In this document: in pieces, positions 9,351 through 39,977 of the stretch | Numbering within the stretch: position 1 is the first letter of the stretch | Layout: every line of letters starts with the position of its first letter | Assembly (NCBI GenBank): GCA_027351145.1 | Contig: DAIEIZ010000007.1 | Location: 1 to 41,641, forward strand | DNA from: Candidatus Moraniibacteriota bacterium | GTDB taxonomy: Bacteria; Patescibacteriota; Minisyncoccia; Moranbacterales; UBA2206 | Direction of reading: 5' to 3' | Length of the DNA stretch: 41,641 nt | Made by a program: the position numbers and the translations under genes | Notes under the pieces: generated by a model | Databases searched by the model: none | Told to the model about the DNA's origin: nothing | What the model saw: the letters and a program-made list of their open reading frames with translations, nothing else

Positions 9351-9351
9351 C

Positions 9352-10320: not shown

Positions 10321-10331
10321 GATTTACGCGT

Positions 10332-12141: not shown

Positions 12142-12143
12142 AG

Positions 12144-23897: not shown

Positions 23898-24881
23898 TTA
23901 TTCCTCTTTCCATAGCACTCTTTTTTTCACAAAAATCACCGCTCCGAACACGCCAAATAGAAGACTGGCCAAGCTTATCCACCAACCATCAATAGCTCTT
24001 TCGCTAAAAATAAACTCCAGTGATTTTCCGTTATAAGTATCTTTGATTCCCAAAAAGGCGAACGCCAGACGTTCATAGTGCTTGGTCAATGAGGTTTGTT
24101 CCAAATTATCACGCATTTTTTCATAGTGTGAAAATTTCGCCAAAATAGCAGTTTGATCCGCTTTTACCATATGCAAACTATTGAAAAGTCCGCCCGGAAC
24201 TTGATTGTCCGGGTCCATCGTATCTCCGATTTGCGGAATAATCAGCACAAAAAGAATCCAGATTACAAAAGAAATAATTAAAGCATTGGGCAATGACTTC
24301 AGCAAAATAGATAATAGAGTTGAAATTGAGAAAAAAATCAGGAGATAGATTATAGTAAAAATAAAAGTAAGAAATATTCGATACAACTGACTGCCTGTTA
24401 GCATCGTTTTTCCAACAATATCCACCACTAAAGTTATTCCGACAAAAACGATACCCGATACGGAAATAATCAGCAAAGCATTTCCCAAAAACTTTCCCAA
24501 ATACACGGAAAATCTACTAATTGGTCGGGTGAGAATTAACTGCAAAGTGTTATTGCCTTTTTCTTTGGCGATACTCAAATAACCCAAGACAATCGCTAAA
24601 ATCGCTCCAATGATTTCCAGATATTCAATCGCTCCGCGCAAAAGTTGCAGAGGAAAAAATTGCGGCTCAGATAAATTTTCCACTACTTGGCCGCTTTGCC
24701 GCAATTTAAGCAATGCATTTTGATACACAGCCACTTTTCCTTGAAAATCAAATGCCGCGACGATAATAGACACGCCAATCAGAAACAGCAAGAAAAAAAG
24801 AAACACCAAAAATACTCGATTCTTCAACGCATCGGCATATTCCTTTTTTGCCACAGTAAAAATTTTTGCGAAATTATTCAT
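23898..24881 (-). CDS. ABC-2 family transporter permease
   Basis: 327 aa, 6 TM with a large first extracytoplasmic loop. 8-nt overlap with the upstream permease. Confidence 0.7.
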   Translation of the reverse strand: MNNFAKIFTVAKKEYADALKNRVFLVFLFFLLFLIGVSIIVAAFDFQGKVAVYQNALLKLRQSGQVVENLSEPQFFPLQLLRGAIEYLEIIGAILAIVLGYLSIAKEKGNNTLQLILTRPISRFSVYLGKFLGNALLIISVSGIVFVGITLVVDIVGKTMLTGSQLYRIFLTFIFTIIYLLIFFSISTLLSILLKSLPNALIISFVIWILFVLIIPQIGDTMDPDNQVPGGLFNSLHMVKADQTAILAKFSHYEKMRDNLEQTSLTKHYERLAFAFLGIKDTYNGKSLEFIFSERAIDGWWISLASLLFGVFGAVIFVKKRVLWKEE

Positions 24882-25827
24882 AAATATTTTCTTCTTGAAT
24901 TGTATAATTGCGAATTGAATAAAAACACAAACTTAAACATACGCCGATTGCAATAAGAAGGATAAATAATTTGCCACTATTATCCCGAAGAGCGCTTCCG
25001 ATGCCTGCGTTTGTTATTTGCAATGAATTATTGAGCAGTTGGCTGGAAAAAGAAGTATAGTGCCAACCGAGAGAAAGCGGACCGAGATAGGTTCGCATCA
25101 GCGCAAAAAACGTTCCGTCCGGAGCAACTTGATCCATTGTGACAGGATTAAGGAGGGCTGTCGGGGTTTGCCCGGAAACCAATTCCGGCAAAACAAAACT
25201 AATCCCCACCCAAATACAAACCGGGACAAACAGCGCCAGCGATTCGCTTTTAGTTTTAATGGCAAATAGCAACCCGACGAGTGCAAAAAAAAGCAGATAA
25301 AAAAAAGAAAGGGCATAGAAGAGAAAAAGTCTCTCAATATCACTCGCAACCAAATGCCGAAAAGGCAATAGCAGTGATGAAAAAACGCTTACAATAAAAG
25401 TAGCGCTGATGATGGCGAAAAGAGCCAAAGAAATCCCCAAAACTTTTCCAAAAAACAATTTTTCCGCTAAAATCGGCCGCGTTAAAAGCAATGGCAGAGC
25501 GCCTGATTTGCGCTCTCGAATAAAACTGCGATGGCCGACCACAATCGCCAAGAGCGAACCGATCAGAAAAATATAGACAATCACATTGCGAAAATTCGTG
25601 AGTGCCGGAAGCGCGTTCAAGGGGTTGGCCGGAATATTATCCGTCCCGGCTTGATGGAGAAATTCCACTGAAGCATTATAAATTGAAGTTGTTGTTGTCG
25701 TGGCAACCAAACCGATAAAAGAAGACGCTAGCGTCATTAAAATAAAAATCGCCAAAAGCAAAAAAAATACACGCTCTCGAAAAAGCACTTTAACTTCTTG
25801 AATTGCAATAGTAAAGATAATTGGCAT
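24874..25827 (-). CDS. ABC-2 family transporter permease
   Basis: 317 aa, 6 TM, same architecture as 23898-24881. Directly follows the ATPase gene. Confidence 0.7.
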   Translation of the reverse strand: MPIIFTIAIQEVKVLFRERVFFLLLAIFILMTLASSFIGLVATTTTTSIYNASVEFLHQAGTDNIPANPLNALPALTNFRNVIVYIFLIGSLLAIVVGHRSFIRERKSGALPLLLTRPILAEKLFFGKVLGISLALFAIISATFIVSVFSSLLLPFRHLVASDIERLFLFYALSFFYLLFFALVGLLFAIKTKSESLALFVPVCIWVGISFVLPELVSGQTPTALLNPVTMDQVAPDGTFFALMRTYLGPLSLGWHYTSFSSQLLNNSLQITNAGIGSALRDNSGKLFILLIAIGVCLSLCFYSIRNYTIQEENIYE

Positions 25828-25832
25828 ATTTT

Positions 25833-26567
25833 TTATTCTCCTATGGTAAAATAGATATCCTCCAGGGATTCTTCGTCGGAAAATCTTTTGAGCATATTCT
25901 CCAGTGTTTCTTTATATACAAGCTTTCCGTGATTCAAAACTCCAATTGTTGTGCAGACTTTCGCCACCTCCGAAAGCAGATGCGTATTCATAAAAATGGT
26001 CATTCTTTTTTCCCTGTTCAACTTCAAAATGACTTCCCGCAATTTTTTGATGCCCATCGGATCAAGCCCGGAAGTTGGCTCATCTAAAAACAAAACTTTC
26101 GGTTCATGCATAATCGCTTGAGCAATGCCGATCCGCTGACGCATCCCTTTTGAAAATTCCCCCAGCTTTTTATGCTCAATGCCGGTAAATTCAATAAATT
26201 CCAAAACTTCAGTAACTTTTTCTTTGGAATTTTTAATGCCGGAAAGCTTGGCAAAATATTCCAAATTTTCACTTGCAGTCAGATTATCATAAAATTTCAC
26301 ATTCTCCGGCAAATAGCCAATACTTTTTTTCACTTCCATGCTTCCTTTTACCGTATCGAATCCGCAAATTTCAGCACTGCCGGAAGTTGGCACGAGCAGT
26401 GTTGTGAGAATATTAACTGTGGTGGTTTTCCCCGCACCGTTGTGTCCCAGAAATCCAAAAATCTCCCCTTCCGCAACAGCTAAATTAAGATTGTCCAAAA
26501 CTGCTTTTCCATCATATTTTTTTGTGAGTGATTTGGTTTCAATAATGAAGCGATTATTTTTTTTCAT
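25833..26567 (-). CDS. ABC transporter ATP-binding protein
   Basis: Walker A GHNGAGKTTT, signature-like FSKGMRQR, Walker B VLFLDEPTSGLD. Confidence 0.9.
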   Translation of the reverse strand: MKKNNRFIIETKSLTKKYDGKAVLDNLNLAVAEGEIFGFLGHNGAGKTTTVNILTTLLVPTSGSAEICGFDTVKGSMEVKKSIGYLPENVKFYDNLTASENLEYFAKLSGIKNSKEKVTEVLEFIEFTGIEHKKLGEFSKGMRQRIGIAQAIMHEPKVLFLDEPTSGLDPMGIKKLREVILKLNREKRMTIFMNTHLLSEVAKVCTTIGVLNHGKLVYKETLENMLKRFSDEESLEDIYFTIGE

Positions 26568-26616
26568 AATAGTTCAATATAAATATTTTAACTATAACAA
26601 ATAATAAAAGAACGAG

Positions 26617-26634
26617 ATGAATACCTTATGAATA
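26617..26634 (-). promoter_or_regulatory. ATGAA direct-repeat box (putative OmpR-family response-regulator site) upstream of the ABC transporter unit
   Basis: Plus strand ATGAATACCTTATGAATA. Half-sites are 11 bp apart. It is 49 nt upstream of the ATPase ATG and overlaps the HK1 stop codon. Confidence 0.45.
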
Positions 26635-27651
26635 AATTGCCGGAAACAATATTGTTGCTTCCGTTCCTTTTTCAAGCGCACTTTTTATTTTCATTTTCCC
26701 CTTATGCAAATCAACGATTTCCTTTACCAGCGACAGTCCAAGTCCCGCACCGCTTGAGGCTCTGACTCTCGCCTCATCAGCTTTATAGAAACGCTCGAGG
26801 ATATGTTCCAGATCCTTATCGGAGATGCCGATGCCCGTGTCAATAATCGAGACTCTTATTCCGTCATTATTTTTATCGATTGAGACAAACACTTCTCCGG
26901 CGGATTTATTATAATCAATGGCATTTTTAATAAGGTTTGAAAATAACCTTTTCAATTGCGACCGATTGCCCCTGACAAAAAATTCTCCCGCGAAATCCTT
27001 TTTCAACTTAATATTATTTTTCACCGCATACGCCAGCATAAAATCGATTTGCTTCGAAAGCAGCCTTCCTAAGTCCACTTTTTCAAAAAAAACATCTTGC
27101 CCCTCATCGCTCTGCGCCAAAAATAATAAATCATTCACCATCCTGGAAAGATGGTTGACTTCTTCAACGGAATCGTCCAATATTTTTTTATATTCTTGGA
27201 CATTTTCACTTTCACGGGAAGCCTGAATACCGGTTTTTAAAACGGCCAGTGGCGTACGCAACTCATGCGCGGCATCGGAAACAAATTTCCGTTGTTTTTT
27301 ATACGCCATCTCAATTGGAAAAAGTGTTTTCCCCGCCAAATAATATCCCAGGCCGGCAAAAATTAAAACGATAAAGCCGTCAGCCGTAATTAAAATCATT
27401 TTGAGCTGTTCCTGCACGATATCAATCATCTGAGAATCAGCATTTTGGCTTTGCGAAGAGTCAACCTCGATATTTTCTGAGATATCCCTGCCAAACATAG
27501 TATAAACCGCCACGCTAAAAACAGTTAGGACCAAAAAAATACCCGCTGTATAATAGATGGCTAATTTTAATCGTGCCTTGAAAAACTGGCTAGGCCTGGA
27601 ATTTGTATCCGACTCCCCTGACTGTTTTAATGTATTTTTCATTCTTATCAT
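26626..27651 (-). CDS. Sensor histidine kinase (HisKA + HATPase_c), TCS-1
   Basis: 2 TM. H-box FVSDAAHELRTPL, N-box NLIKNAIDY, G-boxes DTGIGI and GAGLGLS. Confidence 0.9.
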   Translation of the reverse strand: MIRMKNTLKQSGESDTNSRPSQFFKARLKLAIYYTAGIFLVLTVFSVAVYTMFGRDISENIEVDSSQSQNADSQMIDIVQEQLKMILITADGFIVLIFAGLGYYLAGKTLFPIEMAYKKQRKFVSDAAHELRTPLAVLKTGIQASRESENVQEYKKILDDSVEEVNHLSRMVNDLLFLAQSDEGQDVFFEKVDLGRLLSKQIDFMLAYAVKNNIKLKKDFAGEFFVRGNRSQLKRLFSNLIKNAIDYNKSAGEVFVSIDKNNDGIRVSIIDTGIGISDKDLEHILERFYKADEARVRASSGAGLGLSLVKEIVDLHKGKMKIKSALEKGTEATILFPAIYS

Positions 27652-28255
27652 TTAACTTTTTACGCAATTGCTTAATGTAAGCATCCACGATATTGCTGAA
27701 AGAATCAAACGCAAAATCCCAACAGTGTTCCAAAATCTGATCCCGCGTCAAAACCTGCTCCTTATTTCTCATCAGATATTCAAGCACTGCGTATTCTTTC
27801 AATGTCAGCGAAAGCAATTTTCCGCTTTTAGTTGCAACATATTTAGCATTATCAATGGAAATATCTTGAGCAATAAGCACTTCGCCGGATTTTTCTTTCG
27901 GCCGGCGCAGTAGCGCTCGAACCCTTGCCAGCAATTCATCCAATTCAAAAGGCTTGATCAAATAATCATCCGCACCGCTATCCAGGCCGGAAACCTTGTC
28001 ATCCAGCTCGCCCTTGGCAGTGAGCATTATAATTGGCAAATTAATGTTTCTTGCTCGCAGGTCACAACAAACCGCGATTCCATCTTTTCCAGGTAACATT
28101 ATATCCAAAATTACCAAATCATATTCGCCAAATTCAATCCGCCGCTCTCCGCTTTCACCGTCATAGACGCAATCAACGGCATAGCCTTTCCGCTCCAAGG
28201 CTTTTTTGACATACCCGGCTAATTTTTGATTGTCTTCGACAATTATTATACGCAT
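27590..28255 (-). CDS. OmpR/PhoB-family response regulator, TCS-1
   Basis: Receiver domain MRIIIVEDNQ..DLVILDIMLPGKDG..LTAK. Winged-helix C-terminus ..TVRGVGYKFQA. Confidence 0.9.
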   Translation of the reverse strand: MRIIIVEDNQKLAGYVKKALERKGYAVDCVYDGESGERRIEFGEYDLVILDIMLPGKDGIAVCCDLRARNINLPIIMLTAKGELDDKVSGLDSGADDYLIKPFELDELLARVRALLRRPKEKSGEVLIAQDISIDNAKYVATKSGKLLSLTLKEYAVLEYLMRNKEQVLTRDQILEHCWDFAFDSFSNIVDAYIKQLRKKLNDKNEKYIKTVRGVGYKFQA

Positions 28256-28277
28256 AAAGGAATATTACTGATACTTT

Positions 28278-28295
28278 ATGAAAATTATATGAATG
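28278..28295 (-). promoter_or_regulatory. ATGAA direct-repeat box upstream of the TCS-1 response regulator
   Basis: Plus strand ATGAAAATTATATGAATG. Half-sites are 11 bp apart. It is 22 nt upstream of the RR1 ATG. Confidence 0.45.
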
Positions 28296-28362
28296 GTTTT
28301 TTAATCGCTTAATTATCACAAGCATAGCTCGGATTAACTAAAATTTCCAGTTTTTCAGTAAT

Positions 28363-28391
28363 GAAAAAGACCTCTCCCTTGAGAGGTCTTT
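28363..28391 (-). terminator. Rho-independent terminator after the small secreted-protein gene
   Basis: The minus strand reads AAAAGACCUCUC-AAGG-GAGAGGUCUUUU followed by U. It is 17 nt after the stop at 28408. Confidence 0.65.
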
Positions 28392-28407
28392 TACGTTTTG
28401 CCAGACA

Positions 28408-28692
28408 CTAGTCCTGATGATTGCCCTCATCACCTTCAAACCGATGATCGATTCCGTCTTTTTCATCAGCAACCGACTCCTTTGAGTCTGTCGTATCGCC
28501 AGCTTCCGGCTTATCAACAGTTGTGTCAACGGTTTCAGTGGCACTTTTCACCACCTGCTGAGATTGATCAATCGCATTAACCGCCGCAACCTTATTCGTT
28601 GCACTATTTGCCGACACTTGCATCGCACCAATGGCTCCCCCGCCAAGAAGAAGTCCGAGTGCGAGCATTGACAATGTTTTCTTATTTTTCAT
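28408..28692 (-). CDS. Small secreted acidic protein (94 aa)
   Basis: Signal peptide MKNKKTLSMLALGLLLGGGAIGAMQVSA. The mature part is Asp/Glu/Thr-rich and ends DHRFEGDEGNHQD. It has its own terminator. Confidence 0.6.
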   Translation of the reverse strand: MKNKKTLSMLALGLLLGGGAIGAMQVSANSATNKVAAVNAIDQSQQVVKSATETVDTTVDKPEAGDTTDSKESVADEKDGIDHRFEGDEGNHQD

Positions 28693-28797
28693 AATGTTTT
28701 TACTTTAAATAATTAATTTTTAGCGAAATGATATTTTCGACCGCGGCGACATCACTGACGCCATTATCATTTCCGACTATCATCTTAGCAAATCAAG

Positions 28798-28815
28798 ATG
28801 AAAATCGAGTGAATC
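28798..28815 (-). promoter_or_regulatory. ATGAA/GTGAA direct-repeat box upstream of the small secreted-protein gene
   Basis: Plus strand ATGAAAATCGAGTGAATC. Half-sites are 11 bp apart. It is 105 nt upstream of the ATG at 28692. Confidence 0.35.
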
Positions 28816-28886
28816 TTAATAAATATCCGATTTTGTCTTAATTTACTAATATTTAAAGTATGCCGATTCATTATGATGCTAGCATG

Positions 28887-28918
28887 AAAAACTTCTTCGG
28901 CTATTTGCGCAAGCCGAA
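28887..28918 (-). terminator. Possible intrinsic terminator after GT-C1
   Basis: The minus strand reads UUCGGCU-UGCGCAAAU-AGCCGAA, then GAAG, then UUUUU. It is 16 nt after the stop at 28934. Confidence 0.35.
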
Positions 28919-28933
28919 TTAGATTGACTGGCT

Positions 28934-30646
28934 TTATTTTTCAAACATTTTTTTCCAAGTAAATAAACGCGCTATTTGCATTTTTTCCGTTGGTATTTCC
29001 GATTGGGATTCATCTTGTCTTTGAGCGATAATCGATCCAACTCTCGGCTCGAGATGATAAACAGCAAGCGTGCCAAAATTTTGCTCTTCAGAAATAGCAA
29101 ATTCCTTGGAATGTTTTCCAATTCCTTCGCCGGAAAAAGCAATCACAAAATAATTGCCCTCCGCATACACAGACCGCCCATCCATTGCACTGCGATATAC
29201 TATTCCATCTTTTTCCAAATGATACCAAAAAACTGGCTCATATTCATGCTTGGCCGCTAGATATACCGGGTAACCATTTTGTCGCACTCTGGCTTTAATA
29301 TAATCCAGAATAGAATATTGCTGGGCAAGGGTAATTCTTGCCGTATTAGGAAATATATCCTCCGTTTCCACTATCAACGGCTGTTTATTCACTACTTGCA
29401 ATTGCCAAAAATATTGTCTCAGACCTTGAACATTTCCCGCAATAGCCATAAAAACTAACATGATTGATAAGACAAGACCGATAGTATGGAATTTCATAAT
29501 TAACAGTTTTTCCAAGATAAGTCCCAGGAAAATAAACGGTAAAATAGTCACTCCAAGAAAAAATCGCGGATACATTGTATGATCAATTCGCAAAAGAGAA
29601 AGAAAATATAAGGTAGAAACGAAAAATAATATGGCGGAAAAATAAAGAAAATCTTTGCGCTTTTGGTCTTTCTCTTTTTTCAGATTCAACAAAAGAATAG
29701 TCGCCGCTATTCCTAAAAAGATTAATGCCAAGACTCTCCAAGGAAAATCATCCCCCGCTCCAAGACCATAACCACTTAATTTATGACTGGCATTAATATG
29801 ATCAATTCCCGTTAAAATCAAAGAATATTCTGAAGCATCATGCTGAAATGCTTTCGCTATATCTTTTCCCAGAAAAAGTTTTTCACGCGGACCCCTATCT
29901 ACTTTTTCAAAAAAATAATTAAAATTTTGTCCATGATTTATTATGTCACTAATGACCATGGGCGTGTAAGCCACCAGAATAATAAGGACAGCGGAAGCCC
30001 AAATTCGCAACTTAAAACGTGGGCGCTTTAGAAATAAAAAAACAACAGTCACTGCGGGAAAAATAAAAAAAGCATTAAAATGAATTTGAGTTATAACTGC
30101 CAAGAGAAAAATGGCAAGCAAGAACCATCTATCTTTTTTTATCTCTTCCCTGTCGACACTGCGCAAAAATGCGTAAGCAAAAGCCAAGCTAAGAAACGGC
30201 AGCACATTCGGACTCCAAGAAAAACGCGCATAGGCTACAAGATACAAAGAGCTGGCGTAGATCGAAAGAAGCACTAACGAAACGGTCGCGGAAAAATATC
30301 TTCTGCAAAAAAAATAAAACAAAGGCAGAGAAAGAATGGAAAAAATCAAAACAAGCATAGCATGCCCTGACGGCGTATTGCCAAAAAGCATGGCACTGGC
30401 GTATTCCAAATAATAAAAAGCGGGTCCGAGGCGAAGCGCCCTTCCTCCGCCAGCAGTCGGTCCAAGCAATGGAAGACTGCTGATGCCATTTTCTACCGCT
30501 TGAGCCACTATGCGCGTGTCATAGACCTGGTCAATTTCAAAATGCAGCCAGTCCGAAAAATGATAAGCGCGTAAAAAAATACCCACTCCAATTATTACGA
30601 TAAACGCCAACATTTCCCATTTTTTTATTTCAAATTTTCGAAACAT
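28934..30646 (-). CDS. ArnT/PMT-like GT-C-fold membrane glycosyltransferase (GT39/83-like), paralog 1
   Basis: 570 aa, about 12 TM in the N-terminal two thirds plus a soluble C-terminal domain. The N-terminal loop GIFLRAYHFSDWLHFEIDQVYD sits where ArnT/PMT proteins carry the DE/DD motif. Confidence 0.6.
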   Translation of the reverse strand: MFRKFEIKKWEMLAFIVIIGVGIFLRAYHFSDWLHFEIDQVYDTRIVAQAVENGISSLPLLGPTAGGGRALRLGPAFYYLEYASAMLFGNTPSGHAMLVLIFSILSLPLFYFFCRRYFSATVSLVLLSIYASSLYLVAYARFSWSPNVLPFLSLAFAYAFLRSVDREEIKKDRWFLLAIFLLAVITQIHFNAFFIFPAVTVVFLFLKRPRFKLRIWASAVLIILVAYTPMVISDIINHGQNFNYFFEKVDRGPREKLFLGKDIAKAFQHDASEYSLILTGIDHINASHKLSGYGLGAGDDFPWRVLALIFLGIAATILLLNLKKEKDQKRKDFLYFSAILFFVSTLYFLSLLRIDHTMYPRFFLGVTILPFIFLGLILEKLLIMKFHTIGLVLSIMLVFMAIAGNVQGLRQYFWQLQVVNKQPLIVETEDIFPNTARITLAQQYSILDYIKARVRQNGYPVYLAAKHEYEPVFWYHLEKDGIVYRSAMDGRSVYAEGNYFVIAFSGEGIGKHSKEFAISEEQNFGTLAVYHLEPRVGSIIAQRQDESQSEIPTEKMQIARLFTWKKMFEK

Positions 30647-30661
30647 AGTTGTGATTGGCTT

Positions 30662-31360
30662 TTACTGTTTAATAAAACGCTCTAGAAATTCCATTTCTTC
30701 ATCTCTTTCTGGGTGAAAAATAACTTCACTTTCTTTATTTAAAGGCAGTTTAAAGATTTTGTTAAAATTTTCCAGCCAATCAAAGCTAATCATCAAATCA
30801 GAAGAGGCCAGCTTGGATGCTAAAAACAGTTTCCGATTGCTTCTCCTGAATGAATTCAAAATAAAGCAAACAAGGCTTCTTAGCGGGTAGGACTCCGTAC
30901 CAAGTCTCAGATAATTTATCCCATACTTTTTTGAAAGCACGATAACAATTTTGAAATAGGGCGGGAAAAAGTGAACGTGTTGATGAGAGCTGATGCCATC
31001 CGGCGACTTCCCGAATAATTCTCGAAAATGTTCAATTTGCCCCTCCCATTGTTTTTGCATGGAAGCAGGATTGGTTCGTCCAGAACAATAATTGAAACCA
31101 AATGAAATTACTCGCTTGAAAACACCGTCTTTTATCTTGCGATTAGGATCGATATCATTCCGCAAGTCAATATGGATATCTAGTTTTACATTAGAAGCTA
31201 AGATTTTTTCAATCTCCCGAATTGCTATTCTGCCATGAGGCATTATGGAAATCCGATCGATTTTTCCGGTTTCCAGCAATTGCAACATATTTTCATTAGC
31301 TTTTTGACTTATGCCAAAATCATCCAGCGAAAGAATAATATTTTTTTGTTTTATTAGCAT
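30662..31360 (-). CDS. YdjC/ChbG-family carbohydrate deacetylase
   Basis: Contains ILSLDDFGISQKANENMLQLLETGKIDRISIMPHG and ..SSHQHVH.., the YdjC metal-site-like motifs. Confidence 0.7.
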   Translation of the reverse strand: MLIKQKNIILSLDDFGISQKANENMLQLLETGKIDRISIMPHGRIAIREIEKILASNVKLDIHIDLRNDIDPNRKIKDGVFKRVISFGFNYCSGRTNPASMQKQWEGQIEHFRELFGKSPDGISSHQHVHFFPPYFKIVIVLSKKYGINYLRLGTESYPLRSLVCFILNSFRRSNRKLFLASKLASSDLMISFDWLENFNKIFKLPLNKESEVIFHPERDEEMEFLERFIKQ

Positions 31361-31418
31361 GGATTTTAAATTTATGGCGACTTTCTTACCTCTGATTATG
31401 GCTTATAAATTCAAACGC

Positions 31419-31443
31419 AAAAAACACCCAAGAGACCTTGGGT
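31419..31443 (-). terminator. Rho-independent terminator between HK2 and ydjC
   Basis: The minus strand reads ACCCAAG-GUCU-CUUGGGU, then G, then UUUUUU. Confidence 0.55.
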
Positions 31444-31461
31444 TTATAATAAATTCGCAGC

Positions 31462-31479
31462 ATGAAGAAAAGATGAAGA
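31462..31479 (-). promoter_or_regulatory. ATGAAGA direct-repeat box, an 18-mer identical to 33160-33177
   Basis: Plus strand ATGAAGAAAAGATGAAGA. It lies 15 nt after the HK2 stop and 101 nt upstream of the ydjC ATG. Confidence 0.45.
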
Positions 31480-31493
31480 AACAATGGCAAGAT

Positions 31494-32516
31494 TTAAGAA
31501 GAGATTATTGGAAAACTCACCCGAATTTCCGTTCCAACATTCAACCGGCTACTTATTGAAAGTTTTCCGTGATGATTTTCGGTAATTTCTTTAACAATTG
31601 AAAGTCCGAGACCGGAGCCACCCATCTCTTGCGAACGAGTTTTGTCCGCCTTATAGAATGCTTCAGTAATATGCGGAAGATCTTCTTTGGAAATACCAAC
31701 TCCGGTGTCCGCCACCGAAATCTCCAACTGATTCCCTGCTCTTCTAACAGCCACTTCGACTTTTCCGCCAGGAGAAGTATAATCAATGGCGTTTTTAAGA
31801 AGGTTAAAAAACAGTTTTTCCAAATCCAACCGACTCCCTTTTATGCTGCCATCAACAATTTCACCGGCAGCTAGCAATACACCCTTATTTTTTGCCAAGT
31901 TTTTAAAATTTTCTATCATTTTTTCCGCCAACTTCCCCAGTGCAATTTGCTCCAGTTGCTGATTTGGCATAGCATTATTTCGAGAAAGAAAAAGAAGTTG
32001 CTCCACCATCTTAGACATGCGATCAATCTCCTCAAGATTGCTTTTTACCAACACGCGAAACTCTTGCAAATCTATTTTGCTTTTTCTCAAAATCACTTCG
32101 CAATCAGTTTTCATAATTGTCAGCGGTGTGCGCAAATCATGCGAAGCATTGGCGGTAAAACGCCTTTGCTCCTCCAGTGTGTTTTCGATTGGCCGCAAAT
32201 TTTTTCTCGCCAAAAAAAATGCCAAACCGCCAGAAATAATCAAAAGAATGGCGTTTCCTACCGCAAAAGCTTCCCTCACCTGAGTATCCGCTTTTTGAAT
32301 AGCAGTTTGCCGAGAGGCATGCCCTTTAAACTCCTCATCAATCGCATCTTTGATATTTTTTTGTAAGCTGAAATAAAGACCGACGCTAAAAGCAGCGAGG
32401 ATCACTGCAATAATGAGCACATAGAGAAAGGTGAGTTTTAGGCGCGCCCAAAGAAAAAGATTATTCCTTGAACCGATAGCCCACCCCGTGAATCGTTTCA
32501 AATAATTTTTTGCCAT
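31494..32516 (-). CDS. Sensor histidine kinase, TCS-2 (paralog of 26626-27651)
   Basis: 2 TM. H-box FTANASHDLRTPL, N-box NLLKNAIDY, G-boxes DTGVGI and GSGLGLS. Confidence 0.9.
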   Translation of the reverse strand: MAKNYLKRFTGWAIGSRNNLFLWARLKLTFLYVLIIAVILAAFSVGLYFSLQKNIKDAIDEEFKGHASRQTAIQKADTQVREAFAVGNAILLIISGGLAFFLARKNLRPIENTLEEQRRFTANASHDLRTPLTIMKTDCEVILRKSKIDLQEFRVLVKSNLEEIDRMSKMVEQLLFLSRNNAMPNQQLEQIALGKLAEKMIENFKNLAKNKGVLLAAGEIVDGSIKGSRLDLEKLFFNLLKNAIDYTSPGGKVEVAVRRAGNQLEISVADTGVGISKEDLPHITEAFYKADKTRSQEMGGSGLGLSIVKEITENHHGKLSISSRLNVGTEIRVSFPIISS

Positions 32517-33135
32517 TATTTTTGCTAAATTTATTTCTTAAATTTTTAACATGCACATCAACAATATTACTGAAAGATTCAAAGGCAAAATCCCACAAAT
32601 TACCAAGAATCTGCTCTCGATTTAACACTTGACCGGGATGGCGCATAAAATATTCCAAAAGACCAAACTCTTTAAGCGTCAATGGGATTTCTTCGCTAAA
32701 ATAAGTAACCCTCCGCGAAACGCTATCTAATTTAATGCCGTGTCGGCTTAATTCTAGCGGCATAACGGAAGGCGGCCTTCGAAGCAACGCCCTGATTCGC
32801 GCAGTAAGCTCATCAAAAGAAAAAGGTTTTACCAAATAATCATCAGCCCCGCAGTTGAGACCAAAAATTTTGTCCTCCGTTGTATCTTTGGCCGTAAGCA
32901 TTAAAACTGGAATGTAAATATTCCAGTCTCTCCAATTCTTACAAATAGTCAACCCGTCATGCCCCGGCAACATCAAATCCAAAATTACCAGGTCATAATC
33001 TTGATGGCTAGACGCTATCCTTCTCTGCCCCGCCTCTCCTTCCAGAAAAAAATCAACGGAATAGCCCTCTTGCTCTAGTCCTTTTTTGATAGATTTGACC
33101 AATTTTTGGTTGTCTTCGATAATGAGTATTTTCAT
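32461..33135 (-). CDS. OmpR/PhoB-family response regulator, TCS-2 (paralog of 27590-28255)
   Basis: Contains MKILIIEDNQKLVKSIKK..DLVILDLMLPGHDG..LTAK.. and ends ..IHGVGYRFKE. Confidence 0.9.
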   Translation of the reverse strand: MKILIIEDNQKLVKSIKKGLEQEGYSVDFFLEGEAGQRRIASSHQDYDLVILDLMLPGHDGLTICKNWRDWNIYIPVLMLTAKDTTEDKIFGLNCGADDYLVKPFSFDELTARIRALLRRPPSVMPLELSRHGIKLDSVSRRVTYFSEEIPLTLKEFGLLEYFMRHPGQVLNREQILGNLWDFAFESFSNIVDVHVKNLRNKFSKNNGKKLFETIHGVGYRFKE

Positions 33136-33159
33136 ATCCTTCCAGCATCATACATGAAA

Positions 33160-33177
33160 ATGAAGAAAAGATGAAGA
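33160..33177 (-). promoter_or_regulatory. ATGAAGA direct-repeat box upstream of the TCS-2 response regulator
   Basis: Plus strand ATGAAGAAAAGATGAAGA, with a third ATGAA at 33154. It is 24 nt upstream of the RR2 ATG. On the minus strand it overlaps the -35 position of a TATGAT -10 candidate. Confidence 0.5.
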
Positions 33178-33203
33178 GAAAATAAAATCAAGGCAGCAAT
33201 TCT

Positions 33204-34763
33204 TTATTTCAAAATAAGAATAGCTTGCCGAGAAAATTGCCTGCCGGAAATTATCTCATGACCTTTCACTGCTTGGCCGGGAATAATTTTTCCATTATTA
33301 TTCTCAATATAATAAAGTGGCGAGTGCTGGCTTGAATTATCCAAATTAATCGCTTTTATAAATTTAGCGTCAATATTTGCCTGATTCAAAAAATATTTAA
33401 CAGGCAAATAAAACCGGGGTCCAATCCTTGTTTCTCCGGAAAAAAACAAGGATGATGAATTTCCTCTAGTCGCCAAAACGTATTGCGCCATAAGTTCAAC
33501 CTCTCCCAATGTGCTATTTTTTGCATCATCCTGCAAACCATCCCGATAGCTAATTGCCGCAGTAAAATCCCTAATAAGAGAGAAACTTAGTAATACAAAA
33601 ATCATCCCGACGGCAATTCTGCGCCCTATTTTTCCATATCCGATCTGAATCGCTTCAATAATAAGTCCAAAAAGAACAAAGGGAACTAAAAAAATAATCA
33701 AAAAATATCCCACAAAAATTATTTTAGCAATGGGAACTAAAATAATAAAAGTCACCAGATTAAAAAGCAAAACCAAGCCCAAGAAATTTTTTTTCTTCAG
33801 TTCTTTCGTTTTGCGAAAATTGCGCCAAAGCAGAAAATAGCCCGTCACGGAAAATAACACGCCAAGCGTCATTTCGAGATAATAAAGATATTCGCCGTTT
33901 CCTCTGCTTAAAGGCGACCTAAAAACATTTCGGCAAGATATATCATCTCCAACAGAAGAAAGCGTATAAGCATTGGCCTCAACCTGGCAAGCGGAAATAT
34001 AAAAAGCTTCCATTGCAAGATTTCCTTTTGTTTTTGAATCACTCCTGAATCCGGCAAAGAATTGGCGGGAATTAAACCAATTCGAACCAAATTCTGACAC
34101 TATTTGACTAGTGTTGAAGATAAGAGAAATTATAATTATTATCGCTAAATTTTTCCAAATACCCGGATACTTTTTAATCAGCAGATATACGAATACGCAA
34201 AACGTCACTATAGGCATGATTACTAAAAAAGTCGTGTGCAACTGCACGCCCACCCCCAAACTGATTCCGATTAAAATAACCCACAGCAGGTTCTTTTTTC
34301 CCCGATTATTCAAAATTTTTAGCATCGCATAAAAATACGTCAGCAGAAAAAAGGGCATGAGATTGGGGTTGGAAGAAAAACGAGAGTTAATGACCAAGAA
34401 ATAGGAGACGCTCATTAGGACAGTCAAAGCCAATGAAAGCGTTTTATTAAAATATTCTTTCAAAAATAAAAACAGAAGCGGAATAGCTAAGATCGAAAAA
34501 ATGAGACTAGGGTAAGCCATGGCAACAGGATTATTCCCAAATATTTTTTCCGAAATAAAAGAAAAATAATAATACATCGGTCCTAAAAGAAAATTTGTGT
34601 TACCAGCATTGGGACCGAGAAAAGGTAAGGGATTTTTATTTTTCAAAGCATCACTGATTATTGCGGCATCCCTAGATTGATCACCGCCGAATCTTAGCCA
34701 ATCATGAAAATGATAGGCACGCAAAAAAATTCCCAGAAAAACAACCAGGGACAAAAGTAGCAA
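33204..34763 (-). CDS. ArnT/PMT-like GT-C-fold membrane glycosyltransferase, paralog 2
   Basis: GIFLRAYHFHDWLRFGGDQSRD aligns with GT-C1 GIFLRAYHFSDWLHFEIDQVYD. Polytopic. No ATG is available, so the start is uncertain (the track uses TTG at 34763). Confidence 0.6.
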   Translation of the reverse strand: MLLLSLVVFLGIFLRAYHFHDWLRFGGDQSRDAAIISDALKNKNPLPFLGPNAGNTNFLLGPMYYYFSFISEKIFGNNPVAMAYPSLIFSILAIPLLFLFLKEYFNKTLSLALTVLMSVSYFLVINSRFSSNPNLMPFFLLTYFYAMLKILNNRGKKNLLWVILIGISLGVGVQLHTTFLVIMPIVTFCVFVYLLIKKYPGIWKNLAIIIIISLIFNTSQIVSEFGSNWFNSRQFFAGFRSDSKTKGNLAMEAFYISACQVEANAYTLSSVGDDISCRNVFRSPLSRGNGEYLYYLEMTLGVLFSVTGYFLLWRNFRKTKELKKKNFLGLVLLFNLVTFIILVPIAKIIFVGYFLIIFLVPFVLFGLIIEAIQIGYGKIGRRIAVGMIFVLLSFSLIRDFTAAISYRDGLQDDAKNSTLGEVELMAQYVLATRGNSSSLFFSGETRIGPRFYLPVKYFLNQANIDAKFIKAINLDNSSQHSPLYYIENNNGKIIPGQAVKGHEIISGRQFSRQAILILK

Positions 34764-34819
34764 GTCCAGCTTATTCTTTTTTAAATAAAGTTTTATATTT
34801 TTATATATTCATTCGCTCT

Positions 34820-36025
34820 TTATTTTTCATAAAGATAGAAGAAGTCTTTTTCATAACCGTTCAGATATTGTCTTGATCCATCCTGCAAATCCTTCGTTAG
34901 CGTAGTAGATGTATATTTTCCAAATCCCGTCGGCTCGAAGATATTAAAGCGCACCCAGATTGGATTGATATCCAATTGAATTGCATTTACCGCTCCCGCC
35001 GCTTTCAGGGCATTGGCTAGAGTCACGGGCGTAAGATTATTGCCGACAGCAAAAAGCAAGTTCCCCTCCTTGGTCAAGCCAATTCCCGATCGCCAGGTAT
35101 AGATATCGGTTGTTCCCGCTGCCAAGCGACCCCATAACACTTTGTTTCTCGGATTAGCTACCGAAATCTCACCATCAGTGATAAGCATTGGACAATTTTG
35201 ACGAACAAATGCGACACTACCACCCAATGATTGTCCGTCATAATTAATGATTCTCAATGAACCATCGCTATTTTCTACTAATGTTCCCAGGTCATTTTTG
35301 AGTGGAAGATAGGTTGTATTTTCAACAATCATTCCATAAGCACCATCCTTATATTGAAAACCTCCATCGAAAGCAGCAATCAACTTTCCGCTGTCAATAA
35401 TATCTTTAGGGATAACTCCCGGGCCAGGCTTTCCTACCGGTCCGCCCGGCTGCTTTGTTCCCGCTACGCTACCCATGCGCATCACATGCATGTCCATCTG
35501 AACAATCGTAGTAATGGCATAGGAACGATCGGGATCAGGACGAACAAAAGTATGCGCCATCACCTCTTTGTCCGGAAACAAACTCAAGGGATGATTATGC
35601 CAAATCCCCTCCCCATCAAGTGGCTCAAAATTATTATTCATTTTTAGCGGTGTCAGGTTAAGATTTCCTCCTGCAATATTGCTCCCTGAGTTTTGATCGG
35701 TAAACTGAGGCGCCTTATCAGAATTAGAATTATCCGTCAGGCGCCTTGCAAGATCAGAAGTGTTAAAAAATATTTTTTCCAAATAAACAATATTACTATC
35801 TCCCAATATGGGTCGCAAAACATTGTCAGTCAGTTGAGCTGCGGCCGAAGTATCAAACCTTAAAAACAGAACACCGCAAACAAATAACGCAAAAAAGGAT
35901 AAAACGATAACCCTTATCCACCTAAAAACCAAGTCTTTTCGCTTGCGCTTTGTCTTCGTTTTTATCTCTTTTTTCTGGCACCTAGCTGGCGTTATTACTT
36001 TTTGAGAAACGCTATCCATTATCAT
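34820..36025 (-). CDS. Membrane-anchored phosphodiester glycosidase-like protein (DUF2233/NAGPA-like)
   Basis: N-terminal TM. The C-terminal region ..WRSGIGLTKEGNLLFAVGNNLTPVTLANALKAAGAVNAIQLDINP.. resembles the DUF2233 core. I prefer ATG at 36025 over TTG at 36031. Confidence 0.5.
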   Translation of the reverse strand: MIMDSVSQKVITPARCQKKEIKTKTKRKRKDLVFRWIRVIVLSFFALFVCGVLFLRFDTSAAAQLTDNVLRPILGDSNIVYLEKIFFNTSDLARRLTDNSNSDKAPQFTDQNSGSNIAGGNLNLTPLKMNNNFEPLDGEGIWHNHPLSLFPDKEVMAHTFVRPDPDRSYAITTIVQMDMHVMRMGSVAGTKQPGGPVGKPGPGVIPKDIIDSGKLIAAFDGGFQYKDGAYGMIVENTTYLPLKNDLGTLVENSDGSLRIINYDGQSLGGSVAFVRQNCPMLITDGEISVANPRNKVLWGRLAAGTTDIYTWRSGIGLTKEGNLLFAVGNNLTPVTLANALKAAGAVNAIQLDINPIWVRFNIFEPTGFGKYTSTTLTKDLQDGSRQYLNGYEKDFFYLYEK

Positions 36026-36144
36026 AGCCAAATGAAAAAATTACTCACTGTTTTTATTTGATACAAAGCCAGTATATCTCCTTATATATTCACAACCAAG
36101 AAATGCGCATATTTTCCATAACTGCACGAGTTTCTCATTCTTGT

Positions 36145-36459
36145 TCAGTTTTGCAAATCACTGACGGAAGCATCCCCACTGGCATCGGGAATTGTCAAGT
36201 CGGGATTTACCGTGCTTTGATTTTGGTTTTGACTTGCCCCGGATGAAGTCATACCGCCTTTCGAAGTCTTAGCCGTCACACCTTGTTTTTTCTCTTTACC
36301 AGAAGCTACACCAGCAGCCTTGATTGCTTTCGAAGAAATCAATTTACTCTTTTCATACTTAGCTCCCACGTAAAACATCACACCGTCAACAACAATCAAA
36401 AGTGCCGATAAAGCTAATATCGTTTTCTTATACCCCAAAAATTTTCCTTCTAGATTCAT
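36145..36459 (-). CDS. Small membrane-anchored protein with a disordered Ser/Gly/Lys-rich ectodomain (104 aa)
   Basis: Single TM ILALSALLIVVDGVMFYVGA followed by a low-complexity tail. It is preceded by an ATGAA box. Confidence 0.5.
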   Translation of the reverse strand: MNLEGKFLGYKKTILALSALLIVVDGVMFYVGAKYEKSKLISSKAIKAAGVASGKEKKQGVTAKTSKGGMTSSGASQNQNQSTVNPDLTIPDASGDASVSDLQN

Positions 36460-36510
36460 ATTTCATCTTATTATTTAATTAACTCAGCTATTTAAATCTA
36501 ATCGTCAAAG

Positions 36511-36528
36511 ATGAAGAAAATATGAAAT
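36511..36528 (-). promoter_or_regulatory. ATGAAGA/ATGAAAT direct-repeat box upstream of 36145-36459
   Basis: Plus strand ATGAAGAAAATATGAAAT. Half-sites are 11 bp apart. It is 51 nt upstream of the ATG. On the minus strand it is followed directly by TTGACG. Confidence 0.45.
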
Positions 36529-37378: not shown

Positions 37379-37642
37379 TTAGCAAACGCAGGTTGCATCA
37401 TTCAGCTTAAACTCCTTGCGATCATCAAATTCGGCTTGTTTGCCACCATTCCATTGAGCGACTGGGCGGATATAGCCCACGACACGGGAATAAACCTCCG
37501 TTCTTTGAAAATTTCTCAGAATCGGATCTGCTTGATGACATTTTTTACATTTGCAAAACTCACCGCTCTCCACCGCATAATTCATATATTCTTCGTTCAT
37601 CTTCAGCTCACGACCACAATCATGACAAACTTGTTTTTTCAT
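37379..37642 (-). CDS. 87-aa zinc-ribbon plus glycyl-radical-loop protein; its C-terminal 32 aa are identical to the NrdD C-terminus
   Basis: MKKQVCHDCGRELK...CKCKKCHQADPILRNFQRTEVYSRVVGYIRPVAQWNGGKQAEFDDRKEFKLNDATCVC. The ORF is intact, with ATG at 37640-37642. The track's TTG at 37687 is less likely. Confidence 0.65.
   Translation of the reverse strand: MKKQVCHDCGRELKMNEEYMNYAVESGEFCKCKKCHQADPILRNFQRTEVYSRVVGYIRPVAQWNGGKQAEFDDRKEFKLNDATCVC
37406..37501. repeat. 96-bp direct repeat, copy A (inside the mini-protein ORF)
   Basis: 95/96 identical to 37726-37821 at an offset of 320 bp. The single mismatch is at 37412/37732. Confidence 0.9.
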
Positions 37643-37704
37643 ATTATTTTTGGTTTCATTGAGAGTAATTTTAATTTCGCCCAACAAAACATTTTTTTAA
37701 TTTT

Positions 37705-39933
37705 TTATATTTTGCTTTTCTCCACCTTAAATTCCTTGCGATCATCAAATTCGGCTTGTTTGCCACCATTCCATTGAGCGACTGGGCGGATATAGCCCAC
37801 GACACGGGAATAAACCTCCGTCTTTTGCTCCATTACGCATTTAGGACAAAAAGGATGCTCACCGTTAATGTAGCCATGCACCGGACAGATACTGAATGTT
37901 GGCGTCAAAGTAAAATAGGGCAAAGCATAATTTTCAGCAATTTTTCTCACCAGCTGTTTGGTTGTTTCAATATCCCAAATTCTTTCTCCTAGAAATCCGT
38001 GCAATACTGTTCCTCCGGTATATTTAGTTTGCAAATTGTCTTGCAAATCCAACGCTTCAAAAATATCCTCGGTGTGATGCACTGGCAGTTGCGATGAATT
38101 GGTATAATATGGCTCGGCATTTTTCTCTTTGACATTCTTGTCATTTGCAAAAATAATTTCCGGATATTTTTTGCAATCAATTCTGGCTAGACGGTAGGAT
38201 GTGCCTTCGGCCGGCGTGGCTTCCAAATTATAGAGGTTGCCGGTTTCTTTTTGATAACCGATAATTCTTTGGCGCATGTGCGAGAGAATCTCTTCGGCCA
38301 ATTTTTGCCCTGCGGGAGTGGTGATGTCTTTTCCGATCAAGTTCACTAGCGCCTCATTCATTCCTACGAGTCCAATAGTCGAGAAATGATTAGCCCAATA
38401 CTGTCCACGGCGCATCTTGATTGGAGCAAGATAGAATTTAGTGTAAGGATAGAGACCGCCTTCGGTTAGTTTTTCCACCATCGTTCTTTTAGTTTCCAAA
38501 CTTTCTCTGGCCAAATCCATGAGATGATTCAATTGTTTCAAAAATTCTTTTTTATTCTTAGCGATATATCCTATGCGAGGCATATTAATCGTCACCACAC
38601 CAATTGAGCCAGTGAGCGGATTAGCCCCAAACAGACCGCCACCGCGCTTGTGAAGCTCCCGATTATCAAGACGCAACCGGCAACACATTGAGCGCGCGTC
38701 ATCCGGATCCATATCAGAATTAACAAAATTGGCAAAATATGGGATGCCATACTTGGCCGTCATTTCCCAAATCGCATCAAAGCGCCTGTCCGTCCAATCA
38801 AAATCTTTGCCAATGTTATAGGTAGGAATCGGAAAAGTAAAAATTCGTCCATTCGCGTCCCCTTCTGTCATCACTTCCGCAAAAGCCCGGTTAATCATAT
38901 TCATCTCTTCTTGAAATTCACCATAAGTTTCTTTCTGAGGAAAACCGCCAAAAATCACAGCCTCGCTTTTCAAGTTCTTAGGGCAAGTGATGTCCATCGT
39001 AATGTTGGAAAAGGGCGTTTGAAATCCTACGCGAGTGGAAACATTCATATTAAACACATAGGACTGAATTTCTTGCTTAACCTGATCGTAGGTCAATTTA
39101 TCATAACGAACAAAAGGAGCAAGCAGTGTATCAAAATTAGAAAAAGCCTGCGCACCCGCTACTTCGCCTTGCGTGGTATAGGTAAAATTTACCATCTGAC
39201 CCAAAATTGAACCCAGATGCTTAGCTGGTTTGCAGGCTACTTTTCCCGGCACACCAGTAAAACCGCGCCTCAAGAGATCTTGCAGATCCCAACCGCAACA
39301 ATAGGCAGCAAGAAGCTGCAAATCATGAATGTGAAAATCACCGCCTTCATGCGCTTGACGAATGGCTTTCGTGTAAACCCGATTCATCCAATACTTGGAA
39401 CTAACAATCGAAGAGATGTAGTTATTGAGCCCTTGAAGAGAATAGGCCATGTTGGCATTTTCCTTCACCTTCCAGTCAATTTCTTGAATATATTTATCCA
39501 CTAAATTCACTGCTTCGTCCAGCGATTCCTGAGCCTCACGATTTTTTCTGTGCTGTTCGCGATAAAGAATATATGCCTTGGCGGTTTCTTCAAAATCCAA
39601 AATCATAAGCACTCTTTCCACAAGATCTTGAATTTCTTCAATTTCCGGAACATAGCCTTTCTTGTGTTTTCGCCCTAAAAGCTTTACTACTTTTTCCGTT
39701 ACTTTTTTGGCATCATCCGCTGAACCTTCCTTGGTTGAGGCAAGCGCTTTGGCAACACCCTTTACGATTTTACTCTCATCAAAGCGGGCAACCACGCCAT
39801 TTCTTTTGATGACTTTTTCGATTCGGGTTTCATCTTTCTGCACTTCTTTTTTCACCGCCTTCTTTACTGCGACTTTTGCAGTTTTTTTATCATTCTGCTT
39901 TTTCACTCCCCCTTTTTTCACTTTTTTTGCCAT
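37705..39933 (-). CDS. nrdD: Anaerobic ribonucleoside-triphosphate reductase (class III RNR) with an N-terminal ATP-cone
   Basis: ATP-cone IEKVIKRNGVVARFDESKI. Core region ..CCRLRLD... C-terminal CPVH..CPKC metal site followed by the glycyl radical motif RVVGY. I prefer ATG at 39931-39933 over GTG at 39966. Confidence 0.9.
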   Translation of the reverse strand: MAKKVKKGGVKKQNDKKTAKVAVKKAVKKEVQKDETRIEKVIKRNGVVARFDESKIVKGVAKALASTKEGSADDAKKVTEKVVKLLGRKHKKGYVPEIEEIQDLVERVLMILDFEETAKAYILYREQHRKNREAQESLDEAVNLVDKYIQEIDWKVKENANMAYSLQGLNNYISSIVSSKYWMNRVYTKAIRQAHEGGDFHIHDLQLLAAYCCGWDLQDLLRRGFTGVPGKVACKPAKHLGSILGQMVNFTYTTQGEVAGAQAFSNFDTLLAPFVRYDKLTYDQVKQEIQSYVFNMNVSTRVGFQTPFSNITMDITCPKNLKSEAVIFGGFPQKETYGEFQEEMNMINRAFAEVMTEGDANGRIFTFPIPTYNIGKDFDWTDRRFDAIWEMTAKYGIPYFANFVNSDMDPDDARSMCCRLRLDNRELHKRGGGLFGANPLTGSIGVVTINMPRIGYIAKNKKEFLKQLNHLMDLARESLETKRTMVEKLTEGGLYPYTKFYLAPIKMRRGQYWANHFSTIGLVGMNEALVNLIGKDITTPAGQKLAEEILSHMRQRIIGYQKETGNLYNLEATPAEGTSYRLARIDCKKYPEIIFANDKNVKEKNAEPYYTNSSQLPVHHTEDIFEALDLQDNLQTKYTGGTVLHGFLGERIWDIETTKQLVRKIAENYALPYFTLTPTFSICPVHGYINGEHPFCPKCVMEQKTEVYSRVVGYIRPVAQWNGGKQAEFDDRKEFKVEKSKI
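37726..37821. repeat. 96-bp direct repeat, copy B (3' end of nrdD)
   Basis: See 37406-37501. Confidence 0.9.
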
Positions 39934-39977
39934 ACAGTTTTTATTATTTTTTATTTCAATTACCACCCCTAAAAAAA

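Follow-up and report, generated by a model that had tools for sequence, protein, structure and literature searches.

A direct-repeat box at the operon boundaries of a two-component island

The window analysed here is a 41,641-bp stretch of contig DAIEIZ010000007.1, from the metagenome-assembled genome (MAG) of an uncultured bacterium of the Patescibacteria, or candidate phyla radiation (CPR). It contains an island of genes, all on the minus strand, that encode two two-component systems (TCS), each composed of a response regulator (RR) and a histidine kinase (HK), together with an ATP-binding cassette (ABC) exporter of the ABC-2 type, two PMT_2-type glycosyltransferases (GT-C1 and GT-C2), YdjC and NAGPA/DUF2233 proteins, a small membrane protein and a small secreted protein (Table 1). 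A short direct repeat, termed the box, lies in front of each operon of the island and is a candidate operator for RR1 and RR2, the response regulators of TCS-1 (RR1/HK1) and TCS-2 (RR2/HK2).

A sequence-only reading of the window had placed six boxes of the form ATGAA-N6-RTGAA, in one shared orientation, at the transcription-unit boundaries of the island. A motif scan of both strands recovered all six at the proposed positions (numbered 1 to 6 in ascending coordinates) and gave no further match in the 41.6 kb; in this form 6/6 are on the plus strand and none is on the other. In dinucleotide-preserving shuffles (n=100) the pattern occurred 0.60 times on average and four times at most, six being reached in 0/100. 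With every gene of the island on the minus strand, the functional reading of the box is TTCAY-N6-TTCAT, a direct repeat with an 11-bp period. Its coding-strand form is TTCAT-N6-TTCAT throughout, except for a distal TTCAC half-site in box 3.

The proposed placement also held: every operon is preceded by a box, and only one of the seven gaps between island genes lacks it, whereas the 12 gaps of 50 bp or more in the rest of the window are all without one (Fisher p=2.6e-4). As reported, an identical stretch of 18 nt is shared by boxes 4 and 5, and their flanks differ and are unrelated. A repeat search of the window matched only paralogous coding regions and placed the boxes in no longer repeat. 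The 8 kb of the same contig past the window contain no promoter-type box, and one intragenic TTCAC-N6-TTCAT without a −10 element behind it. When the window was scored with a 34-nt matrix derived from 35 sites outside it, the six boxes were among the seven best matches, with scores of 23.7 for box 6 and 27.2 for box 4.

A seventh candidate, CTCAT-N6-TTCAT-N10-TAAACT (23027-23058, plus strand), scores 20.8 with this independent matrix. It lies on the strand opposite to the island genes, at the start of YggU, and is directed antisense to the 3′-terminal part of the ABC operon; it may represent an antisense promoter or have arisen by chance.

Promoter geometry and predicted transcript starts

Exactly 10 nt separate each of the six boxes from a −10-like hexamer, which is GATGCT at box 5 and fits TAnnnT at the other five. 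No −35/−10 pair was found at any of the six box promoters by a consensus sigma-70 scan that required a −35 element; the box covers approximately positions −38 to −23, standing in for the absent −35 element. In 41 aligned sites, comprising the 35 non-window sites and the six window boxes, TAnnnT is found at exactly N10 in 29, the count at any other offset between 0 and 24 being zero to four, and the hexamer after N10 has T at position 1 in 30/41, A at position 2 in 36/41 and T at position 6 in 35/41.

Box 5 has an alternative hexamer, TATGAT, at N7, and 11 bp further upstream there is a third half-site in the same phase, TTTAT (33186..33182), which is weaker. At the RR2 promoter, the N10 arrangement is favoured over box-N7-TATGAT by the orthologous CPR locus L173 (one of the set described below), where the RR2 promoter has a matching layout with GATAAT at N10, and by the offset profile of the 41 sites, which makes N7 the less probable arrangement.

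The distances of the boxes from the RR genes, given earlier as 22-24 nt, are exact (RR1, 22 nt; RR2, 24 nt). The N10 hexamers end 6 nt before the RR1 ATG (TAATAT; ATG at 28255) and 8 nt before the RR2 ATG (GATGCT; ATG at 33135), and the box 2 layout is found likewise in the orthologous loci L169, L170 and L171. Such spacing would place the start site on the start codon or 1-2 nt before it, and predicts leaderless or nearly leaderless RR-HK mRNAs. For boxes 1 to 6, transcripts are predicted to begin at ~26594, 28255 (the A of the RR1 ATG), ~28775, ~31439, 33136-33137 and ~36488. This prediction agrees with the lack of a recognisable Shine-Dalgarno sequence before RR1 and most genes here (for example, the starts at 26567, 28255, 28692, 31360 and 36459). 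The proximity of the −10 element to the RR ATG in the window and in relatives, along with the few Shine-Dalgarno sequences, suggests that leaderless or Shine-Dalgarno-independent initiation may be frequent in this lineage.

Box 4 had been singled out as an oddity because it lies upstream of the HK2 terminator rather than downstream of it. The arrangement is indeed as claimed, with the hairpin at 31443..31426 on the minus strand, beginning 2 nt after the −10 hexamer of box 4. The predicted start site of box 4, ~31439, falls within the 5′ arm of the hairpin, so that transcripts from box 4 would hold only 3 nt of that arm and the terminator could not form. Read-through from RR2-HK2 would thus be halted at the hairpin, with 3′ ends at ~31420, while transcripts begun at the box 4 promoter would escape termination, and a start inside the 5′ arm would explain why the box precedes the terminator. 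The ortholog in L173 has the box and TATTAT without the hairpin, and hence the nesting of promoter and terminator is specific to the genome of the window.

The distal half-site of box 1 overlaps the Ser-stop codons of HK1, and the orthologous ABC operons in L169, L170 and L172 also have a box in front. Just upstream of box 1, in the last HK1 codons, lies a 9-bp hairpin, CGGAAGCAACAATATTGTTTCCG (26641-26663, minus strand), which may be a weak terminator or an RNA-processing site between RR1-HK1 and the ABC operon.

Table 1. Boxes, promoter hexamers and genes of the island, in the direction of transcription
Feature	Coordinates	Strand	Sequence or description
Upstream of island			nrdR, nrdD, nrdG
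Box 6	36511..36526	-	TTCATATTTTCTTCAT
Box 6 −10 hexamer	36500..36495	-	TAGATT
Small membrane protein (box 6 operon)	36145-36459	-
NAGPA/DUF2233 (box 6 operon)	34820-36031	-
GT-C2 (box 6 operon)	33204-34763	-	PMT_2
Box 5	33160..33175	-	TTCATCTTTTCTTCAT
Box 5 hexamer at N10	33149..33144	-	GATGCT
RR2 (box 5 operon)	32461-33135	-	response regulator
HK2 (box 5 operon)	31494-32516	-	histidine kinase
Box 4	31462..31477	-	TTCATCTTTTCTTCAT
Box 4 −10 hexamer	31451..31446	-	TATTAT
Intrinsic terminator of RR2-HK2	31416..31443	-	ACCCAAG-GTCT-CTTGGGT, then GTTTTTTGCG (T-run)
YdjC (box 4 operon)	30662-31360	-
GT-C1 (box 4 operon)	28934-30646	-	PMT_2
Box 3	28798..28813	-	TTCACTCGATTTTCAT
Box 3 −10 hexamer	28787..28782	-	TAAGAT
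Small secreted protein (box 3 gene)	28408-28692	-	89-nt leader; terminator after gene
Box 2	28278..28293	-	TTCATATAATTTTCAT
Box 2 −10 hexamer	28267..28262	-	TAATAT
RR1 (box 2 operon)	27590-28255	-	response regulator
HK1 (box 2 operon)	26626-27651	-	histidine kinase
Box 1	26617..26632	-	TTCATAAGGTATTCAT
Box 1 −10 hexamer	26606..26601	-	TATTAT
ABC ATPase (box 1 operon)	25833-26567	-
ABC-2 permease (box 1 operon)	24874-25827	-
ABC-2 permease (box 1 operon)	23898-24881	-
Conserved protein (box 1 operon)	23204-23869	-	221 aa

Regulator clades, box conservation and box flavours

RR1 and RR2 both consist of a Response_reg domain and a winged-helix Trans_reg_C domain and are paralogs with 52% identity; HK1/HK2 and GT-C1/GT-C2 are likewise paralog pairs. 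Homologues of both regulators are numerous (60-88% identical to RR2 and 65-83% identical to RR1), all the named ones are from Patescibacteria/CPR (Moranbacteria, Yanofskybacteria, Paceibacterota, Nomurabacteria, Portnoybacteria and Magasanikbacteria), and the two homologue lists have no sequence in common. By sequence comparison, RR1 and RR2 represent two conserved sister clades. The recognition helix of RR1 is SNIVDAYIKQLRKK (clade consensus SNIVDV-Y-IK-Q-LRKK) and that of RR2 is SNIVDVHVKNLRNK (clade consensus SNVVDV-H-IK-N-LRKK), with two positions that are conserved within each clade and different between clades (Y/Q versus H/N). The best NCBIfam matches of both proteins are the RppA equivalog (RR2 245.3 and RR1 228.6 bits), where they are near misses relative to the cut-off of 250, and the CopR/CusR/CzcR subfamily (TIGR01387; 218 and 232.9 bits), where the cut-off of 279.2 is not reached. 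As the scores are under the curated cut-offs, the RRs were not filed as RppA, CopR or CusR members. The closest solved structures are those of Thermotoga DrrD (1kgs) and BasR/PmrA (4s04), the latter being the second-closest to RR2 (E=1.5e-41). HK1 and HK2 have two membrane helices ~30 aa apart and a His box ~20 aa after the second helix, with no HAMP or PAS domain in either, an architecture that resembles the intramembrane-sensing kinases of envelope-stress modules. The ABC ATPase best matches DrrA, GldA and lantibiotic-protection types, and the permeases belong to ABC2_membrane_2.

Conservation of the boxes in syntenic loci of relatives, a check that the sequence-only reading had called for, was investigated in loci of the RR2 clade (L083-L088, L163, L165, L167 and L173, plus L003) and of the RR1 clade (L169-L172). 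A contig search with an RR2 alignment relied on patterns common to all OmpR-family regulators and yielded mostly unrelated phyla, at no more than 52% identity, and the loci from this wide search served as a background set only, except L003, L013 and L014. In 14 orthologous CPR loci (225.5 kb), exact TTCAT-N6-TTCAT boxes occur 30 times, where dinucleotide shuffles predict 2.0. Gene calls were available for seven loci, which contain 22 exact boxes; the 20 intergenic ones are all oriented towards the gene that follows. In L083, L084, L086, L163, L165, L167, L173, L003, L169, L170 and L171, and twice in the window, the RR ATG is preceded by a box at 20-24 nt. Autoregulation, initially suggested by the two RR genes of the window, is in keeping with an RR-proximal box in 12 of 13 loci of both clades (at least 61% identity, plus L003 at 52%), L172 being the one without it. 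Another five metagenome loci, in which RR identity is 61-67% (L085 and L087) or lower, have no such box.

The target genes are also conserved with the regulators. Neighbours of RR2-clade TCS that have boxes are PMT_2, YdjC, NAGPA, small-membrane-protein, DUF347 and Metallophos genes, with five boxes before PMT_2 genes in L165 alone. Those of RR1-clade TCS are an operon of ABC_tran, two ABC2_membrane_2 and a ~200-aa protein, and the gene for the small secreted protein, whose orthologs in L169 and L170 have the box too.

The sequence-only reading had divided the boxes into two flavours, and this division extends to the relatives. Site classes were set before testing, as RR1-clade RR and ABC operon sites (n=8) and RR2-clade RR and PMT_2 operon sites (n=17). 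The 6-nt spacer contains on average 1.25 T in the former and 3.7 in the latter (Mann-Whitney p=0.002), and the difference is retained without the window sites (p=0.0075). The commonest base before the proximal half-site is A in the RR1/ABC class (5/8) and C in the RR2/PMT_2 class (10/17). The two regulators thus probably share the TTCAT core with biased specificity, the A-rich spacer going with the Y/Q and the T-rich spacer with the H/N helix residues.

Several proteins and leaders encoded near the boxes are themselves conserved. The small secreted proteins under TCS-1-type boxes (window 28408-28692, L169:15054-15332, L170:11832-12116 and L171:11700-12062) have in common a signal peptide (LSMLALGLLLGGGAIGA) and, at the C terminus, an acidic motif that includes His, D-H-x-F-E-G-D-E-G-N-H-Q-D, and could be metal- or ligand-binding accessory proteins. 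In the leader behind box 3 (28693-28797, minus strand), a short GC hairpin is followed by the block GGTCGAAAATATYATTTC, which is conserved in the orthologous CPR leaders L169:14937-15053 and L170:11713-11831; an Rfam scan of the window gave no match, so no leader here falls in a known RNA family. The first gene after boxes beside RR2-type TCS often encodes a ~90-105-aa protein that has a single membrane helix at the N terminus and a tail rich in Lys, Ser, Thr and Ala (window 36145-36459, minus strand; L163:11739-12014, L165:11775-12092, L167:9514-9828 and L170:6472-6741). PMT_2 genes often follow it, and the GT-C enzymes may have this protein as a substrate or partner. Conservation extends to the gene that ends the ABC-2 exporter operon (window 23204-23869, minus strand; L169:14342-14905 and L172:15080-15733), which encodes a protein of ~190-220 aa with an N-terminal membrane anchor and no Pfam match, the orthologs being ~52% identical to the window copy and the L169 and L172 copies 59% identical to each other. 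Upstream of the island, nrdD (37705-39966, minus strand) is followed by a separate 102-aa ORF (37379-37687, minus strand) that also matches the NRDD Pfam family, and the C-terminal (glycyl-radical) part of NrdD may have been split off or frameshifted in this MAG.

Proposed operator function, comparison with known systems and alternatives

We propose that the six boxes are operators for phosphorylated dimers of the two OmpR/PhoB-family RRs of the island, a reading that we consider highly probable. It is based on the 11-bp direct repeat, the fixed N10 distance to the −10 element, the absence of a −35 element and the conservation of the box with the regulator. The OmpR/PhoB-type operator originally suggested is thereby strengthened, given two encoded winged-helix RRs, half-sites spaced by 11 bp, the N10 geometry and conservation. 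Bound head-to-tail, a phosphorylated RR dimer would bring in RNA polymerase in the manner of PhoB at the pho box, and both RR-HK operons would be positively autoregulated. TCS-1 would induce the ABC-2 exporter operon and probably also the small secreted protein, and TCS-2 would induce the two operons encoding the PMT_2-type GT-C enzymes, YdjC, NAGPA and the small Ser/Thr/Lys-rich membrane protein, which together would constitute an envelope-modification response. The shared TTCAT core would permit cross-regulation, with the spacer (including C before the proximal half-site for the T-rich type) and the helix residues biasing each RR. We infer binding, activation, start sites and the assignment of RRs to boxes from sequence, spacing, conservation and gene context. 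A broader proposal, that box-N10-(−10) marks a circuit conserved across many CPR lineages in which leaderless, autoregulated sister TCS clades control ABC-2 exporters on the one hand and, on the other, PMT_2 GT-C batteries along with small Ser/Thr/Lys-rich membrane proteins as their possible substrates, the clades having one half-site in common and being separated through spacer composition and two recognition-helix residues, seems to us about evenly balanced.

The half-site has precedents among characterized regulators. In Synechocystis sp. PCC 6803, TTCAT-N4-5-TTCAT is a putative CopR site that is also present between nrsRS and nrsBACD (PMC4182526). As with CopR and NrsR, the TTCAT direct repeat of the window occupies the promoters of both the TCS operon and the target operon, and the window RRs score best against the RppA and CopR/CusR models, although under their curated cut-offs. 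Unlike the CopR system, the kinases here have a ~30-aa loop between the membrane helices and no large periplasmic metal sensor, the targets are ABC-2 exporters and GT-C enzymes rather than metal efflux, and the host is a CPR bacterium. Among the loci from the wide search, L014 from the cyanobacterium Komarekiella atlantica contains ten near-identical ATTTCATCTTAATTTCAT boxes in 20 kb around an RppA-like RR gene (1624-12878). These read TTCAT-N6-TTCAT, and nine of the ten are followed by N7-TGT-CAnnnT, that is, the N10 rule with an extended −10 element, so that L014 looks like a dense regulon cluster with identical box-to-(−10) spacing. The L014 boxes and the published CopR site indicate that the TTCAT half-site and its geometry belong to a wider RR subfamily.

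The pho box of E. coli, CTGTCAT-N4-CTGTCAT, lies 10 bp upstream of the −10 element and replaces the −35 element. At PhoB-activated promoters a strict spacing between box and core promoter is needed (PMC10294691). The window boxes resemble the pho box in being direct repeats with an 11-bp period, 10 nt and a strict distance from the −10 element and no −35, in a half-site that differs by one base (GTCAT versus TTCAT), and in the proposed autoregulation of the regulator's own operon. They differ in that the RRs score 202 and 187 bits against the PhoB model, relative to a cut-off of 296, the residue aligned by eye with the base-contacting arginine of PhoB is Q or N, and the kinases lack a PAS domain. 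A Pho regulon, suggested by the near-pho-box and by phosphoesterase-type neighbours (Metallophos, PAP2 and NAGPA), was rejected because there are no pst or phoU genes in the 12 loci inspected and the PhoB score is sub-threshold.

The HssR repeat can be written as GTTCATATT-N2-GTTCATATT, which would be TTCAT-N6-TTCAT. HssRS and HitRS of Bacillus anthracis are paralogous OmpR-type TCS with related direct repeats in which a few bases decide the signal answered (PMC3968170). The window resembles HssRS-HrtAB/HitRS of B. anthracis and Staphylococcus aureus in having two paralogous TCS, one of which would drive an adjacent ABC exporter. It differs in the exporter, an ABC-2 type encoded with two permeases rather than an HrtB/FtsX-like one, in showing no evidence of haem sensing, and in a second TCS that would control glycosyltransferases. 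In Enterobacteria, the direct-repeat PmrA box of PmrA/BasR drives arnT, which encodes a GT-C lipid-A glycosyltransferase. This arrangement is similar in its OmpR-family RR, direct-repeat box and envelope-modifying GT-C targets, and different in half-site sequence, with the window PMT_2 proteins being only distant relatives of ArnT. CPR bacteria are not known to have an Arn pathway or lipid A.

Several observations weigh against operator function as proposed. Box 2 has the lowest score of the six with the independent matrix (16.6), and at the RR2 promoter GATGCT is a weak −10 element at N10, TATGAT at N7 being better. There is no box before the RR in L172 of the RR1 clade or in L085 and L087-L093, whose RRs are ~51-67% identical to RR2, and L089-L093, with distant RRs (~51-61% identity), have no box at all. 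The published CopR spacer is N4-5, in contrast to the N6 and 11-bp period found here. The difference between the flavours rests on 25 phylogenetically related sites, and boxes with T-rich spacers occur in RR1-clade loci such as L170 and L172 as well. The last of these points also favours a different view of real operators, in which one RR or an unlinked regulator binds all the boxes, or some of them are repressor sites, and the flavours carry no specificity. Such a view would account for a TTCAT core that is identical in both flavours and for recognition helices that differ at just two conserved positions, and HssRS and HitRS of B. anthracis do cross-regulate through similar direct repeats (PMC3968170). 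However, RR1/ABC and RR2/PMT_2 sites are told apart by spacer composition in loci other than the window, the target class typical of each clade recurs with it in many genomes, and the lack of a −35 element at the boxes favours activation over repression; we therefore regard a single or unlinked regulator, or partial repression, as improbable.

As the box lies where a −35 element would be and keeps a constant distance to the −10 element, it might instead be a general core-promoter feature, such as an unusual −35 or UP-like element for the housekeeping sigma factor, and CPR promoters are not known to have been characterized experimentally. This is very unlikely, since none of the 12 gaps outside the island is boxed, including those before nrdR and nrdD and in a glycosyltransferase/ABC cluster, the 8 kb past the window lack a promoter-type box, the ribosomal-protein and gyrB promoters of L173 are unboxed, and boxes in other loci gather around RR genes. 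Spread of a small mobile repeat, or of remnants of a duplicated segment, along with duplication of the TCS module would fit the 18-nt identity of boxes 4 and 5 and the paralogous RR, HK and GT-C pairs. Yet similarity stops at the edge of the box, repeats are matched only in paralogous coding regions, and the box is also found in single-TCS loci of other genomes, which leaves this origin with slight probability. Least probable of all, to a degree that we consider negligible, is that the boxes are chance occurrences in AT-rich intergenic DNA or start-codon-like ATGAA strings. The half-site is admittedly AT-rich and only 5 nt long, and when one mismatch is allowed the excess is modest (19 observed versus 10 expected), but exact matches number 6 versus 0.6 expected with none on the other strand, the orthologous loci contain 30 versus 2.0, TAnnnT at N10 in 29/41 sites is beyond chance, and the genes are on the opposite strand, so that the ATGAA strings are not start codons.

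Regulation by phosphorylated RR1 and RR2 at the boxes would be conventional, as the mechanism is that of textbooks; what it offers is annotation and a starting point, not a new principle. The half-site had already been reported for related regulators; what is new is the assignment of an operator to two widespread CPR TCS and their envelope-related targets. Nearly all CPR bacteria are uncultured, and almost nothing has been reported on their gene regulation. A sequence-defined operator with strict geometry provides a testable handle and would allow regulons to be predicted across thousands of MAGs, and a natural pair of paralogous regulators with one half-site offers a way to study how cross-talk is avoided. 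Through the assignment, two sensor systems that are widespread in CPR bacteria are tied to envelope glycosylation and ABC-2 export, which are likely relevant on the surface of the host cell. If the broader proposal of a conserved circuit is correct, the box would be among the first cis-regulatory codes for uncultured, host-dependent CPR bacteria, and it would suggest that inducible envelope glycosylation is a core CPR response to stress or to interaction with the host.

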